A stretch of 63,880 nt of DNA, the filler included, from an uncultured Methanosarcinales archaeon (GTDB lineage: Archaea; Nanobdellota; Nanobdellia; Woesearchaeales; CAZKBD01): the NCBI GenBank assembly GCA_964550945.1. It is 11 parts of 11 records of this genome, joined end to end, with 100 filler letters (N's around TTAATTAATTAA, not from the genome) between each part and the next. Parts side by side here need not be neighbours in the genome. Positions count along the whole stretch, not along the records: positions 31,904 to 37,669 come from CAZKBD010000101.1; 10 more parts are not named here. One strand, given 5' to 3'. Shown here piece after piece: positions 31,904-37,669 of this stretch (position 1 is its first letter; the number at the start of each line of letters is the position of its first letter). The notes below the pieces were generated by a model. It saw nothing but the letters and a program-made list of their open reading frames with translations. It searched no databases and was not told where the DNA came from. A program made the translations under genes and the position numbers.

Positions 31904-32020
31904 AAATTTAAAGAAAATACTTAATGAACAGGTTTTTGTAAAAAACGCAAAAGTCTATAAAACGAAAGGTTTATATAACAGTTTATTATATTTTATTATA
32001 AATTATAATAAGGTGATAAA

Positions 32021-32263
32021 ATGGTACAGGCAATTGTTAATTTAGGTGAACGTGAGGATAGGGTTCTTACCATAGTAAAAGGTAAGTTCGGTCTAAAAAA
32101 TAAATCTGATGCAGTTAATCTAGTTATAGAGAAATTCGAGCAGGAACTTCTTGAACCTAGGCTGAGGCCAGAATATAAAGAAGAACTATTAAAGATCGAT
32201 AAAGGAAAATTCAAAAGATTTTCTAGCATTGAAGATTTAAGAAGAGAGATTGAGAATGTATAA
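32021..32263 (+). CDS. Antitoxin (DUF2683-like, RHH-type)
   Basis: MVQAIVNL..DRVLTIVKGKFGLKNKSDAVN..RFSSIEDLRREI; overlaps toxin start. Confidence 0.8.
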   Translation: MVQAIVNLGEREDRVLTIVKGKFGLKNKSDAVNLVIEKFEQELLEPRLRPEYKEELLKIDKGKFKRFSSIEDLRREIENV

Positions 32264-32636
32264 TTTTGAAACATCAGAAACCGCTACTCGCAATCCCTTT
32301 GCTTCAGCTCAGGGTAAGAAGGCGGTTTCTGAGTGTGCTCAAGAACACGCCCCCCATTTTAGTGGGGCGGTTCTTGACAGAAGCAACAGGCTTATCAAAA
32401 TTTTAAAGAAACTCTTAAAAAAAGACAGGGTGCGTTATGAAGCGACTATGAAAAAGATTCAAGAAGTTATTAATTCTGAGGACCCCAACCATTACAAAAA
32501 TTTGAGTTATGACTTGAGTGATTTTAAAGGTGTTCATATCGACACCCATTTTATTCTTATTTTTAAGGTTGATAATTCTGCAAAATTAATCAAATTTGAA
32601 GATTTAAAGCACCATGATGATGCTTATGAACGGTGA
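32256..32636 (+). CDS. RelE/ParE/YafQ-family toxin carrying a 36-codon in-frame insertion
   Basis: LKKLLKKD..HYKNLSYDL..VHIDTHFILIFKV..HHDDAY. Confidence 0.85.
   Translation: MYNFETSETATRNPFASAQGKKAVSECAQEHAPHFSGAVLDRSNRLIKILKKLLKKDRVRYEATMKKIQEVINSEDPNHYKNLSYDLSDFKGVHIDTHFILIFKVDNSAKLIKFEDLKHHDDAYER
32272..32379. mobile_element. 108-bp double-hairpin palindromic element inside the toxin gene
   Basis: TCAGAAACCGC/GCGGTTTCTGA and TCAAGAAC..GCCCC/GGGGC.GTTCTTGA arms; ends resemble the TGTCA...TGACA family. Confidence 0.75.
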
Positions 32637-32693
32637 TATTTGAGAGGCACGGCAATTGAATATAATCGCTTGTTAAACTCTTTCCCAGTTACG

Positions 32694-32829
32694 TAAGTTC
32701 TGGCGGATTTCGTTTCGAAAAGTAATTTTTAGTGGCTCGTGTTCAATCAAGCGAACAAAGTGAGCAATCAAGAACATACATTAAGGGGGGCATTTCTAAA
32801 CAACGAAAACGAACGAGGGGGGTGGGGTG
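32694..32829 (+). repeat. Left multi-block inverted repeat of the radical SAM cassette
   Basis: Blocks TAAGTTC, TAATTTTTAGTGGCT (32723..32737), TAAGGGGGGCATTTC (32782..32796) and AGGGGGGTGGGG, mirrored at 36774..36849. Confidence 0.8.
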
Positions 32830-32844
32830 GACGACTAATTTTAG

Positions 32845-33858
32845 TCATTTCCCATAAGCATACTGCCACATTATTCTGAATGATTCTATGAGTCCATCAA
32901 TATCTTTACGTGCCAGCAGTTCATTATCTACCATAAATACATTTCTACTATCTGGAAATACTCTTTGGCAAGCACTTAACATCATTCCCTCAGGTGAACT
33001 AGAAAGCTGTGCTGAATATATTCCCTGGCAATATTCCCTGCAGTTATTTGCCTTACAGTTATCAGTTACTACATAAACTGCTTTTCTTGGTACATTGACT
33101 TTCATTGTACCATCTGTTAAAAAAGGCCTTCCTTTATCAGAATAACCTAACTCCCATCTATCACTTCTTAAAAAAACTTCAGTTACCTCTTGTGGGTCAA
33201 CATAAAGTCGATCAAATGAATCCTCTATAGCTTGAGTTTTATACACTCCAAAATAAAAAGCGTTTCTTGCCCCTATACTTTCTGCTCGTTTTAACAAGAC
33301 CTCGAGCTGTTCATAAGATGAAATTCCATCTGTGTTTAGGCATACATGTACGTGCACATCTATCCCGCTTTCAACTGCATTCTGCATAGCCCTAAATGCA
33401 TCATCTAAGCTAAACCCGGTCCCATTATACGCCATGTATTTCTCATTTGTCTCTGCTGATATAGACATATTAATTCGCCTAAGCCCTGCAGCAGACAAGT
33501 CTTGACAGAATTGCCTATCCACTAATCTTGAACCATTGGTTACAGCCCAAAATTGATTAACGCCTTCAGTTCTAGATATAGCAGATACTACATCAAGCAA
33601 GTAGTCTCTATCGAGCAAGAGCGGCTCTCCACCACTAATCTGAAAATTATGACAATCTGTAGCCACCATTGCTTTTGTAATCAATGCTAGGTCCTGCGGG
33701 GGCATAGTAGGTGTTGCTTTATTTACTTCAGGTGAAACAGGCCAACCGCAAAAACTACATCTAAAATTGCAGTAATCTGAGATAAAAATTCTGAGAAGTT
33801 TATCAGGTACAACATTTACAGGTATTTCTTGTTGGATATCTGTTTTTCTTTGGCTCAT
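32845..33858 (-). CDS. Radical SAM enzyme, MoaA-like
   Basis: LRIFISDYCNFRCSFC, SGGEPLL, VTNGS, AGLRRINMS; C-terminal Cys cluster CKANNCREYC..C. Confidence 0.9.
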   Translation of the reverse strand: MSQRKTDIQQEIPVNVVPDKLLRIFISDYCNFRCSFCGWPVSPEVNKATPTMPPQDLALITKAMVATDCHNFQISGGEPLLLDRDYLLDVVSAISRTEGVNQFWAVTNGSRLVDRQFCQDLSAAGLRRINMSISAETNEKYMAYNGTGFSLDDAFRAMQNAVESGIDVHVHVCLNTDGISSYEQLEVLLKRAESIGARNAFYFGVYKTQAIEDSFDRLYVDPQEVTEVFLRSDRWELGYSDKGRPFLTDGTMKVNVPRKAVYVVTDNCKANNCREYCQGIYSAQLSSSPEGMMLSACQRVFPDSRNVFMVDNELLARKDIDGLIESFRIMWQYAYGK

Positions 33859-33879
33859 TTTATTATCTCATTTAATTTA

Positions 33880-35367
33880 TTATTTAGTTTCTTCGAAAGT
33901 TATTGCTTTTCCATGGGGAATGAGATTAGCAACATTAAACCCAAGCAGGAACTGCCCTTTAAAATCATGAGTTTTCATAAGCGTAATCACTTGGTCAAAC
34001 ATTCTAACTTGCCTCTCTAATCTACATTCCTCGCATCCTAAAGTGGCATCCATTACTTGTTGTGTTCTTTCTGCTAAAATTTGGGATAAGTCTCCAGTTT
34101 GTTTAACTCTATCTTCTTGAGTTCTGGTTGGATTCCACCCATCAACATACCAAAAATCTGAATTTCCAAAATTTTGGCTGCTTCTGCAACTTAAGATCCT
34201 AGCGCCAGTTTTTCTAGGAGCATCTGTTGTTATTATTGTTGGGTTCCACAGAGCAGATCCACACACTTCATTATTTTCTCTGGTTGTTGCATCAAAATAA
34301 ACATTTCTTTCAGGAGCATCCAGTCTTAAAGTTCCAGGATACCTTATTATTGTTCTTCCACAATCAACAGATCTAAGATCATCAAAAAATTCCCCAGTTA
34401 CTCTTTGTTGTGCTTCAGTAAATTCAATCCCCCATTTTCCATAAGAAGGCTCTACAGGATTGATATATACATAATCAATGCCTAGTTGTATGAATCTACC
34501 CATCATATAACTATAGCTCCCAGTATTTTCTGGTAATATCAAGGTTGCTACACCAACTAAAACATCATCTCTTCTTCCGGCTTGTTCTAAACTAGCCATC
34601 AATCTTTCTAGATTACCAAGAACTTTTCCAAAAGTTGTTTTGCCATTTGTTCCTTGGTATTGATCGTAAGCAGCATCGTTAAGTCCTTTTATAGAAACAG
34701 TTATCATTGCAATGTCATCTGCTATTGATCTTATTATACCTCCATCTTTATCTCTTGGTAGCCTTAGATTAGATGTCAGGAAAATTCTCATACCCTTTTC
34801 TTTCAGATAATCTAATATTCTTAGTATATCTGGATGTTCTGTTGGTTCGCCATCTCCAGAAACGACAGCAGAAATAGAGTCAAGCCTAGAGCCCATTGAA
34901 TAGACCTGTTCTATTATGTTCTCGATAGCTTCATAAGGAATGAACCTTTCACTAACCGGTTTTCCTTTGAATCTATCTAAATTATGAAACTGACAGATAT
35001 GACAACTTGAATTACAAACGCCACTCGGATAAAGATAGAATCTAGGTATCACAAGATTTCCTTCTCCATAGAATTCTTCAATCGCCCTGAAAGTATCAAA
35101 AGGGCTACCTGGATAGAAGCTAGAAGGGTGTATTCTTACAGAACCAACTACGGCTCCGTCTACTACGTATACTGCTGAGTGATAGGGTGTTTTAAAAAAA
35201 TGTTGCGTAGGATCCTGCATAAGATTTGCTAATACTAAAGTTTGCTCTGGTGATATGCTTATGATACTTCCTTTCCTAATCTGGTAAACCTGACTCGTTT
35301 CACCTAACAATACCGTTCTTCTTTCATCAACTGCTTGAACCATTTTCTTTGTTATTGAACATTTCAA
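33880..35367 (-). CDS. Radical SAM enzyme with SPASM/Twitch-like tail
   Basis: CNSSCHIC, SGDGEPT, C-terminal C..C..CEECR. Confidence 0.9.
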   Translation of the reverse strand: MKCSITKKMVQAVDERRTVLLGETSQVYQIRKGSIISISPEQTLVLANLMQDPTQHFFKTPYHSAVYVVDGAVVGSVRIHPSSFYPGSPFDTFRAIEEFYGEGNLVIPRFYLYPSGVCNSSCHICQFHNLDRFKGKPVSERFIPYEAIENIIEQVYSMGSRLDSISAVVSGDGEPTEHPDILRILDYLKEKGMRIFLTSNLRLPRDKDGGIIRSIADDIAMITVSIKGLNDAAYDQYQGTNGKTTFGKVLGNLERLMASLEQAGRRDDVLVGVATLILPENTGSYSYMMGRFIQLGIDYVYINPVEPSYGKWGIEFTEAQQRVTGEFFDDLRSVDCGRTIIRYPGTLRLDAPERNVYFDATTRENNEVCGSALWNPTIITTDAPRKTGARILSCRSSQNFGNSDFWYVDGWNPTRTQEDRVKQTGDLSQILAERTQQVMDATLGCEECRLERQVRMFDQVITLMKTHDFKGQFLLGFNVANLIPHGKAITFEETK

Positions 35368-36680
35368 AAAAAATAATTGCCAACTGGTCTATCCCTAATT
35401 TTTGTCTGATCCGGATGTTCTATCGTATTGTTAACCCATGACTGCCTACAGCTCTCCGGATTACAAAATCTACCCATCCTACGGTAAAAAAAATATTGTA
35501 AAATTCCTATTCTTGTTCTTTCTTGTTCAGGTATACCCTGGAGAGTGTTTCCCAAAGAAAATTCAGGAAATGCCGGAAGCAGGAAGTCAGGATATTCGGT
35601 GCCATCAGCCCTGAATACTCTATGTATTAACGCATTGTAACAATTACTAAATGGCCTTGCAGTGTGAACAAATGGGTCTTTTTTAGCTCTTTCCACTAAC
35701 GTTTGAAAATTGGTTGCCGTATACAGGAAATCTGTAAACTTATCATCAGTTTCTGCCTTACTCAAGACTTTAGCAACTTCTCCTCTTACTCCGTCAATTA
35801 CTTCTTGCGGCAAATAAACGCCACCTGCCATTATAGAACCTGCTTGTTCAATAGGTGGGGAGATAGGCCTAAACTGGATATTGAACCTTTTTTGTATTGA
35901 TGTGGGTTGTTGCTGATACCATTCAAACCATATTTCAAGAAAATCAAAGATTTCATGAGAATTTTCTTTCCTATACAGAAAGCCAACTCCGACATATTGG
36001 ATAGGTGTATCAGTAAGCATACGTCTTACATTAGCTACTACTGCATCATATTTGTCTTTTCTTTTAATACGCCTATAAGTTTCGGCGTTTGAAGCGTCAA
36101 TAGAGCTTCTTTGCCATAAAATGTGGTCGGTCCATGTACCTTCCGGCATTCTGGTGTTGTTGTTAATAAGACCAATCTGAGCATCAGGAAGTTCTTCGTG
36201 GATAAAAAGTATAACCTCATTCATGGTGTGCCCCTGAGAGCTATAAACATTTGGTTCGCCGCCGCCTGTTACAGTTATTGCTCTTGGAGAAAGTCCTTGA
36301 AGAATCATAGGAATTTTATCAAAGCCTACTGTTGCTCCGGTTTTGTGGAGATAATGGCAATCAACACAGTCTAAATCGCACCTGTCAGTAATATGAAATT
36401 CAAGTTGGCCTATTGGATATGCCGAATTCATGTCCTTTACAAGTTCATCAACTGATCTTCCATTCATTGAAACAATTGCTCTAGCAGCCTCTTCTACAGA
36501 GACAGCTCTTTGCTGCAATGAAGAAAGAACTTCAAACCTCCCCTTATGAATTTCATCAGAATCACCAGCAAATCCCCATTTTTTAGCAATGGCGACCTTT
36601 CGTTCAATAAGGGATAAATGATTAAATACCCTATATGGGTTTCTTAATACCTGATTTACTGAAGATTGAGTTTCTTCCAT
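35364..36680 (-). CDS. Radical SAM enzyme with degenerate SPASM-like tail
   Basis: ITDRCDLDCVDC, TGGGEPN, SIDASNAETY, C-terminal C..ADG..CNPESCR. Confidence 0.9.
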   Translation of the reverse strand: MEETQSSVNQVLRNPYRVFNHLSLIERKVAIAKKWGFAGDSDEIHKGRFEVLSSLQQRAVSVEEAARAIVSMNGRSVDELVKDMNSAYPIGQLEFHITDRCDLDCVDCHYLHKTGATVGFDKIPMILQGLSPRAITVTGGGEPNVYSSQGHTMNEVILFIHEELPDAQIGLINNNTRMPEGTWTDHILWQRSSIDASNAETYRRIKRKDKYDAVVANVRRMLTDTPIQYVGVGFLYRKENSHEIFDFLEIWFEWYQQQPTSIQKRFNIQFRPISPPIEQAGSIMAGGVYLPQEVIDGVRGEVAKVLSKAETDDKFTDFLYTATNFQTLVERAKKDPFVHTARPFSNCYNALIHRVFRADGTEYPDFLLPAFPEFSLGNTLQGIPEQERTRIGILQYFFYRRMGRFCNPESCRQSWVNNTIEHPDQTKIRDRPVGNYFF

Positions 36681-36773
36681 TATATTTTAGATGAATATAA
36701 TCGTATATTTAAATCTATTTATATATAACTACTATTAAGAAGTAATTATTACGGAACTTAAACCACCAAAACG

Positions 36774-36849
36774 CCCCACCCCCTATGACTAACTAAACGA
36801 CGAAATGCCCCCTTATCAGTCATTTAGCCACTAAAAATTATTGAACTTA
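36774..36849 (-). repeat. Right multi-block inverted repeat of the radical SAM cassette
   Basis: Minus strand TAAGTTC aa TAATTTTTAGTGGCT ... TAAGGGGGCATTTC ... AGGGGGTGGGG. Confidence 0.8.
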
Positions 36850-36867
36850 ATCTGTGTTAGTTGCGTC
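36840..36867 (-). other. Xer dif-like recombination site (11-6-11)
   Basis: GACGCAACTAA CACAGA TTAAGTTCAAT versus E. coli dif GGTGCGCATAA TGTATA TTATGTTAAAT (right arm 9/11, left arm 6/11). Confidence 0.55.
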
Positions 36868-36943
36868 TGCGAAGCAGACCGAGGGATAGTGCAACGGTTT
36901 TTGCGAAGCAAAAAATCCCAAAGAGTTGCCGATCCAAAAATTA

Positions 36944-37531
36944 TTATGACTTGTGAGCTTTTCCCATAGTACTTTTGAACTCGTTAAAATCATAAGGAAA
37001 TAGGTTGATGAATACACCTAAAACCATACTCTTTTCTTCAAAACCTATTGAAAGTGAAGGGTTTCTCATTAACTCATTAGATTGTGTATCAAGATACTCT
37101 AAAACTAATGATTTACATTTTAGACTAGGAGACAAACCTGCTTCCTGATTTTCGTTAAGTGAACTAAATACAAATCTTATTTTATCAGACTTATTATTAA
37201 TCTTGTCTGGAAACCAAATTGAGATCTCTTTTATTATATTATTTCTTACAATTGGTAAAATTATGCGTTTATTAGTCACTAAAATGGAAGCCCTATGTAT
37301 GTTTGGAAACATAATCCCTTCAATTAGATTAGGATTGTCTAAATGATGTTTATTGGTTGAATACCAGACAGCTGGAAAGAACTTCATCTTTATCTCATCC
37401 TTTTCAATTAAGAATTTATCCTCCTGTCTTAAATTATCTAACTGCATCGGTTCCAAATCATACTCTTTGGCTATTATTTTTTGTTCTCTTCTAAACTTCA
37501 ATGGGTATAACCAACACCATAAAAGGAACAA
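36944..37531 (-). CDS. Hypothetical membrane-associated protein, start uncertain
   Basis: Frame stays open upstream through a hydrophobic segment without ATG; ILVTNKRIIL resembles PH-like domains. Confidence 0.5.
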   Translation of the reverse strand: MFLLWCWLYPLKFRREQKIIAKEYDLEPMQLDNLRQEDKFLIEKDEIKMKFFPAVWYSTNKHHLDNPNLIEGIMFPNIHRASILVTNKRIILPIVRNNIIKEISIWFPDKINNKSDKIRFVFSSLNENQEAGLSPSLKCKSLVLEYLDTQSNELMRNPSLSIGFEEKSMVLGVFINLFPYDFNEFKSTMGKAHKS

Positions 37532-37669
37532 AGCACAAACAAGAAATATAAAAATTGGAATAACTGAAAATAATGAAGACTTTTTTACATATTCATTAAT
37601 TATCCCACTTAAAAGGATGTGGGACAGGATTAGCTAATTTCTATGCTGTTTCTTATAGAAGTTGAATAC

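Follow-up and report, generated by a model that had tools for sequence, protein, structure and literature searches.

Integrons combine a recombinase gene and its attachment site with a polar array of cassettes, in which an AAC/GTT triplet marks the boundaries and the start of a cassette is complementary to its end. Their attC sites contain an unpaired spacer and span 57-141 bp in the accessible text of PMC5027507. According to the accessible part of PMC7790495, the integrase IntI is thought to derive from Xer-like double-strand recombinases through gain of the I2 helix, by way of intermediates that are speculative. The archaeal XerA/dif system uses a unique chromosomal site with 11-6-11 imperfect inverted repeats (Cortez et al. 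2010, PMC2958812, as far as its accessible text goes). In the pdif/xrs modules of Acinetobacter (PMC11705084) and in IMEX elements, adaptive genes lie between dif-like sites and the module carries no recombinase; the accessible portion of that paper describes xrs pairs as mostly inverted, acted on by host XerCD, and not excised. The integron-like simple tyrosine recombinases (Smyshlyaev et al., 10.1101/542381) are relatives of IntI that lack the insertion; in what is accessible of that report, they are associated with IS91 and IS3 elements and not with attachment sites or cassette arrays. Here we analyzed a gene cassette in a stretch of 63,880 nucleotides (the window) from the genome of a DPANN archaeon of the order Woesearchaeales (GCA_964550945.1). 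Contigs that are unrelated to one another make up the window, and the cassette sits on one of them, CAZKBD010000101.1 (C101; window positions 31904-37669). Judged from sequence, it is probably a 4.2-kb, hairpin-free, integron-like cassette in a fragment of an array, which would be excised and re-inserted, probably as double-stranded DNA, by a XerA-like recombinase without I2 that belongs to a group termed clade C below. The cassette and its junctions, in window coordinates, are as follows.

32672..36850, minus strand: complete cassette of 4179 bp, running from TT in the start arm (short end, S) to AAC at the long end (L) (end family and junction grammar)
36840..36867, minus strand: upstream junction, a hairpin-free 11-6-11 site made up of the preceding cassette's end arm (36857-36867), a 6-nucleotide spacer (36851-36856), and this cassette's start arm (36840-36850), all on the minus strand (sequence)
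32655..32683, minus strand: downstream junction, a hairpin-free 11-7-11 site in the orientation of the upstream one, made up of this cassette's end arm (32673-32683), a 7-nucleotide spacer (32666-32672), and the next start arm (32655-32665), all on the minus strand (sequence)
36774..36840, minus strand: inner blocks of the short end, B (36826-36840), C (36802-36815), and D (36774-36784) (sequence)
32684..32827, plus strand: inner region of the long end, with a variable hairpin stretch (32684-32722) and blocks B (32723-32737), C (32782-32796), and D (32816-32827)

Read from the short to the long end, a cassette of this family starts with TT-N4-[TG]CAAT and ends with the complementary arm followed by AAC, and a junction joins the end of one cassette (...AAC) to the start of the next (TT...CAAT). 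A G directly precedes the TT of the arm in 14/14 long ends and 30/40 short ends, and 8 of the 10 short ends without it have AAC across a 6-nucleotide spacer. Start and end of the same cassette are perfectly complementary in 11/13 pairs from hairpin arrays and 10/20 pairs from simple junctions, scores that 0/10000 shuffles reached in either case; the arms of the window cassette match at 6/8 positions. Both of its junctions are simple sites, lacking an attC hairpin and sharing one orientation, and the downstream spacer is one base above the usual length. Tyrosine recombination between direct sites leads to excision and not to inversion. The two recombination sites of the window are direct repeats, with only the inner arms and blocks inverted; excision, not inversion, is therefore predicted. 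The likeness to integrons extends over the polar array, the triplet, the start-to-end complementarity, and, in relatives, a recombinase gene with its attachment site and attC-like hairpins; the cassettes differ in carrying inverted inner ends of ~100 bp and, in the window, in having junctions without a hairpin.

An earlier note on this DNA had proposed a Xer/dif cassette bounded by inverted multi-block sites. Its core survives in that the evidence supports a tyrosine-recombinase cassette with variable cargo and dif-like sites, and the right-hand 11-6-11 site is present at 36840-36867. The blocks it listed also hold: B is identical at 15/15 positions (32723-32737 on the plus strand, 36826-36840 on the minus strand), and C and D likewise recur in the same order and inverted. 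The recombination sites, on the other hand, are not inverted but direct, being junctions in an array. The spacers between blocks, described as unrelated, are indeed different at the two ends, yet within each end type they are conserved across genomes. TAAGTTC at 32694-32700, named as the left partner of the right arm, falls within the variable hairpin stretch, whose fold is inside the shuffle range (z -0.6); the true arm starts at 32673, as seen in 14 long ends, and the supposedly degenerate left core is the 11-7-11 site at 32655-32683. A weaker site suggested at 36718-36745 is matched in score by 69 of the genome's 3.9 million 28-mers, overlaps a TATA-like box, and occurs in 1/40 short ends (the window's own) and 0/14 long ends. 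This site and the left TAAGTTC were both dismissed as recombination arms.

The inverted 15-mer is not significant by itself, since it arises in 43/300 local shuffles of the contig. The ordered set of blocks is significant: profiles built from the ends of other genomes, with the window left out, matched the two ends of its cassette at E values of 2e-14 and 7e-33, and on the reversed genome the short-end profile gave 0 matches and the long-end profile 1 match at E 0.29. A short-end 27-mer is present in 19/401 genomes of the order, with 0 control matches, and a short-end 25-mer in 34 GTDB loci, all titled archaeal and for the most part Woesearchaeota or Nanoarchaeia; neither end had a match in the viral collection. 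Among 40 relatives, the strong DNA matches involve flanking sequence rather than cargo. At 11 loci, the window included, a short and a long end face each other around 1.2-7.8 kb of unrelated cargo, and in 14 long ends the arm lies 48-51 bases outside block B. The earlier note had suggested looking for the blocks in related genomes, where they do recur, flank variable cargo, and mark a gene-content breakpoint: in genome G001, pheS and a TrmB-like gene are ~5 kb apart, with two cassettes in between, and in the congeneric G136 the two genes are adjacent and the array is missing (gene names read from translations).

Inverted multi-block ends that enclose variable cargo, with many copies standing alone beside housekeeping genes, would also fit a non-autonomous transposon, resembling a miniature inverted-repeat transposable element or a mobile insertion cassette, whose long terminal inverted repeats are recognized by a DDE transposase in trans. 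We consider this explanation, already disfavored, very unlikely. The flanking hexamers are identical in 0/11 pairs of short and long ends, so that no target-site duplication is seen; boundaries lie at a G|TT or AA|C triplet; and inspection by eye found no transposase among the cargo of the 11 pairs. The ends abut attC-like hairpins and tyrosine-recombinase genes instead. At 8 loci a XerA-like gene encoding 258-276 amino acids lies within 2.5 kb (<=2.5 kb) outside the short end and is transcribed away from it.

Variants of blocks C and D are concordant between the ends of one cassette in 19/22 comparisons (P = 0.00015, for features picked post hoc), and 10/11 cassettes of hairpin arrays (from loci L121, L119, L128, L131, L077, and L020) have a private inverted end match of 11-18 points that beats the ends of all other cassettes. 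The co-variation and the private matches point to ends that are paired with, or copied from, each other. The duplex energy of the two ends of the window cassette is -35.7 kcal/mol (best shuffle, -22.4), and other family ends pair with one of them as well as its own partner or better, so that this partner is not singled out. Block B of the window is a common, widespread version of the private match. Between blocks C and D, the linker is rich in A in 30/32 scorable short ends and rich in T in 11/13 long ends (one of the two exceptions is N-filled); because this pattern is swapped at both ends of the window cassette (32797-32815 and 36785-36801), an exchange within block C is suggested to have once flipped its interior.

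Junctions of two types were found in the arrays. Hairpin junctions measure 82-222 nucleotides and have an attC-like layout; a strict scan of 3.0 Mb, used in place of a looser anchored scan that had 10-24 control matches, returned 36 against 0, 0, 0, and 0 in controls. Compensatory changes occur in the inner box of these hairpins, which were selected on pairing. Simple junctions consist of AAC, 5-6 bases, and the next TT; 3.3 Mb of sequence yielded 21 of them, and the controls 1, 1, and 0. A further 15 junctions have a partly deleted hairpin interior (controls, 3, 1, and 2). One unpublished genome (G244), among the 19 with the short-end 27-mer, contributes one hairpin (L053) to the scan counts, and two others (G111 and G131) are counted in the 121-genome recombinase tally below; no conclusion rests on these three.

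XerA-like genes are present in 106/121 genomes of the order (E<=0.001; the count takes in the short protein of the genome analyzed here), and 0/151 genomes of the order pass the IntI cut-off (TIGR02249). For the recombinases, the archaeal XerA model is the best-scoring one, and their alignments to PaXerA (4A8E) and TaXerA (5HXY) extend from end to end. A FastTree phylogeny of 50 selected proteins yielded three clades, A, B, and C; a 46-row IQ-TREE analysis backs the B+C split and clade C and leaves the root of clade A open. Against IntI4 (2A3V), proteins of clades A and C give a two-segment alignment and lack ~50 residues, the stretch that holds I2. They differ from the integrases of integrons in lacking the IntI-specific domain by which PMC9668308, in its accessible text, defines IntI.

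Of 29 XerA-like genes examined, a set biased toward clade A, 26 have a conserved upstream site whose far arm is a cassette start. The attachment site lies 70-230 bp upstream of the divergent recombinase gene, arrays run away from it in one polarity, and the first cassette begins at G|TT beside it; this arrangement is seen in relatives only, and there is none on the window's contig. Clade A comprises 21 rows, 20 of them with the conserved attachment site. Clade B also comprises 21, 7 of which have a near-symmetric dif-like site upstream (5 found by script, 2 by eye) and 1 a cassette site, and several of the 8 rows of clade C have a second kind of attachment site. The motif of the clade-C site has 27 matches in 301 genomes, against 3 in the control. 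A full clade-C-like recombinase adjoins 8 of these 27 places, among them the locus used for training. In a single-contig genome (L133), the gene and its attachment site are followed by 9 more junctions over 14 kb.

Junction type follows enzyme clade, and the link is imperfect. The 17 clade-A loci (137 kb) contain 22 hairpins and 0 simple junctions; the 8 clade-C discovery loci (70 kb) contain 16 simple junctions and 1 hairpin, and 8 further clade-C loci found by motif (31 kb) contain 3 simple junctions and 1 hairpin. No junction of opposite polarity was found beside these recombinases. In clade-A hairpins the spacer is paired at 148/164 positions, in matches partly selected on pairing, and a recurrent TT beside L' may be a bulge; a largely paired central spacer, in sites of up to 222 nucleotides, would set them apart from the attC sites of integrons.

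The simple junctions could alternatively be decayed attC-like hairpins, their interior lost by slippage between TTA repeats at the base of the stem, and the window cassette an immobile relic of a hairpin array. The 15 part-deleted intermediates and the intact hairpins of this genome speak for such decay, and the 7-nucleotide spacer, the 6/8 arm match, the flanking insertion-sequence ends, and the missing enzyme all fit it. Beside intact clade-C genes (L133, L083, and L196), simple junctions nevertheless occur in series of 3 to 8, with cassette ends that mostly match well, and the clade-A arrays, with no simple junction in 137 kb, are at odds with random decay, which would not sort by clade. 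Decay as the origin of the window junctions seems quite unlikely to us.

More probably, the cassette is mobilized by a clade-C enzyme: a tetramer would excise it between two direct sites, and the junction of the released circle would consist of inverted arms around an asymmetric spacer. Possible targets for insertion of the circle would be the attachment site, another junction, and secondary sites. Since simple junctions have no way to form an attC hairpin, double-stranded DNA is the probable substrate. Pairing of the two ends is likely aided by the inverted inner blocks B-D, through protein bridging or strand pairing. The genome analyzed here would rely on an enzyme supplied in trans, unless the enzyme has been lost. 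Contigs assembled from read run X1 span both window junctions with no differences and those of X3 span the left one; X1 and X3 are runs of one study, possibly the source study of the assembly. Neither an excised circle nor an empty junction was found in the assembled contigs of 3 of 5 runs, which cannot show absence. One joint between the two cassette ends in read-run contigs was set aside, since one 21-base side matched at 90% likeness and it likely belongs to another organism's cassette.

Several observations weigh against mobilization of the cassette by a clade-C enzyme. No full-length recombinase of any clade was found in this assembly (92% complete, 177 contigs); the sole tyrosine recombinase of the genome is a 215-amino-acid, catalytic-domain-only protein on a very long branch (contig C24; L001:1474-2121). 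The genome holds both junction types, with intact attC-like hairpins on contigs C137 and C163, and hairpins can decay toward simple sites, as the part-deleted intermediates indicate. The window copy may itself be inactive, given its 7-nucleotide left spacer and imperfectly matched arms. Two clade-C loci (L131 and L233) carry hairpin sites. In one single-contig genome (G096), the cassette-linked clade-C enzyme is the only recombinase of XerA size, and in another genome (G097) an array adjoins a clade-B enzyme. Because upstream regions of clade A served as the training set for the attachment-site matrix, the figure of 20/21 for that clade is partly circular, and loci were taken from top matches, among which kin are not independent. 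Only 1 of 4 empty-site comparisons was informative: G032 and G154 are rearranged relative to each other, and two more comparisons had no common flanks. A recombinase match in G097 lies within a 227-amino-acid open frame.

Some of these points would be expected if the cassettes made use of the housekeeping XerA/dif machinery in the manner of pdif modules and IMEX elements, the view taken in the earlier note, with blocks B-D serving as sites for accessory proteins. The 11-6-11 geometry, the best scores of the recombinases against the archaeal XerA model, and their end-to-end alignment recall XerA/dif, the enzymes of G096 and G097 agree with such a role, and in relatives one arm of the clade-C attachment site, that on the host side, is similar to the arms of clade-B dif-like sites. 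Those dif-like sites differ from the junctions, however. Six genomes (G017, G018, G084, G105, G134, and G141) hold a cassette-type paralogue, with an asymmetric AAC site, together with a second paralogue whose near-symmetric dif-like site lacks the AAC triplet. The many variable, asymmetric sites in arrays contrast with the unique chromosomal dif of PMC2958812, and symmetric dif-like sites adjoin a separate paralogue clade (B). The junctions are direct, of one polarity, and tied to an adjacent recombinase, whereas the xrs pairs of PMC11705084 are, in its accessible portion, mostly opposite and not excised. A loose pattern for the chromosomal dif gave no convincing site in this genome. We regard use of the housekeeping system as unlikely. 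The earlier note named XerA; the enzyme associated with the cassettes is mostly a distinct XerA-like paralogue that has an attachment site of its own, although G096 and G097 keep that line from being sharp.

Added here to the described systems are the split between hairpin and hairpin-free junctions by enzyme clade, and a common family of ends around unrelated cargo. No description of cassette arrays run by a XerA-like enzyme without I2 was found in the literature searched, which left most subscription journals outside its scope. Data S1 of Ghaly et al. 2022 (PMC9668308), on integrons and CALINs of archaea, lists 6 Woesearchaeales genomes with 2-12 attCs and 0 IntIs, and the recombinases offer a candidate enzyme for such integrase-less attC clusters. 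Xer-sized enzymes beside polar arrays, with or without hairpins, make the transition from Xer to IntI testable with purified proteins. The results also suggest that standard integron finders, which need the IntI domain and the attC fold, miss this route of gene acquisition in small-genome archaea, a route that would bring in defense, toxin-antitoxin, and metabolic genes. More tentatively, and with somewhat less than even confidence, we propose that DPANN archaea possess two sister capture platforms with I2-less recombinases that share one cassette pool. The hairpin-free form would then be a living example of the hypothesized double-stranded "proto-integron" between Xer/dif and IntI, its reusable inverted ends acting as a cloning vector for unrelated genes, including an operon with bacterial homologues.

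The cargo and the flanking features on the contig are as follows.

35364..36680, minus strand: cargo gene 1, a 438-amino-acid radical-SAM-like protein
33880..35367, minus strand: cargo gene 2, a 495-amino-acid radical SAM protein
32845..33858, minus strand: cargo gene 3, a 337-amino-acid radical SAM protein, MoaA-like far below the cut-off
36706..36713, minus strand: TATA-like box, 26 bp ahead of the first cargo gene (sequence)
36857..36945, plus strand: end of the long type that belongs to the preceding cassette; it has two GCGAAGC mini-hairpins and a fold z of -3.3 (sequence and folding)
36944..37614, minus strand: gene of the preceding cassette, with an N-terminal hydrophobic stretch and no Pfam match (open reading frame)
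32021..32665, plus strand: following cassette, with a DUF2683 gene and a YafQ/RelE-type toxin gene, oriented against the array, its far end lost
31904..31956, no strand: repeat common to 6 other contig ends that truncates the array, likely an insertion-sequence end (repeat comparison)
37615..37669, no strand: repeat common to 4 other contig ends that truncates the array, likely an insertion-sequence end (repeat comparison)

The TATA-like box is likely the cassette's own promoter; a sigma-70 promoter scan stayed below the shuffle level, sigma-70 being irrelevant to archaea. The protein of cargo gene 1 has 47 homologues, of which the named ones are mostly bacterial (Nitrospirae, Margulisbacteria, and Prevotellaceae, with one Bathycorpusculum). 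At E<=1e-30, that of cargo gene 2 was seen in 1 of 401 genomes of the order, the one analyzed here. A metagenome scan for relatives of cargo protein 1 gave 243 pattern matches with 0 confirmed, and the operon was not seen elsewhere in it. PADLOC returned only weak viperin-profile matches on the cargo, which we take to reflect the common radical-SAM core, and Rfam gave a single match on the contig at chance level (E 0.58). Cargo of the other pairs includes restriction-modification, HEPN/nucleotidyltransferase, MazF, P-type ATPase, protease, and Dam genes, and the genes run from the short to the long end in 8/11 pairs (by eye).

Both termini of the contig are repeats common to other contig ends, and the contig is a three-cassette piece of an array, cut by what are likely insertion-sequence ends. 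The frame of the preceding-cassette gene stays open up to the repeat at 37615, where the start of the gene is cut off. An end resembling that at 36857-36945 comes before an attC-like hairpin in L073. The genome (G000; 1.97 Mb) has many contigs that terminate in common 55-bp repeats, in families of up to 8, which are likely unassembled insertion sequences; in L026 a repeat of the same style adjoins a transposase, which we take to be IS1182-like. In the following cassette, a mobile, folded 118-bp insertion (32263-32380, z -5.9) splits the toxin gene; it presumably resembles an IS200/IS605 end, has full or partial copies on ~10 other contigs, and is skipped by one X3 contig.

Further cassette ends in this genome lie on contigs C137, C163, C65, C128, C112, C16, C19, C166, C99, and C45, the last of which has an attachment-like site with no adjoining recombinase. 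In G032, a fragment like the C terminus of a tyrosine recombinase was noticed by eye just past an array (L019:8150-8300). Many of the records that bear the end family are titled "uncultured Methanosarcinales" and look like the Woesearchaeota group; they are likely mislabeled deposits. Gene-less cassettes of 98-180 bp occur at L083:113-270, L020:5637-5898, and L133:13668-13766. A 2.3-kb Dam module is common to L075 and L079 at 93%, although the genes next to it differ, and a Bro-N cassette with one and the same short end has different neighbors in four genomes (L061, L062, L065, and L025), where its copies are 68-77% identical.

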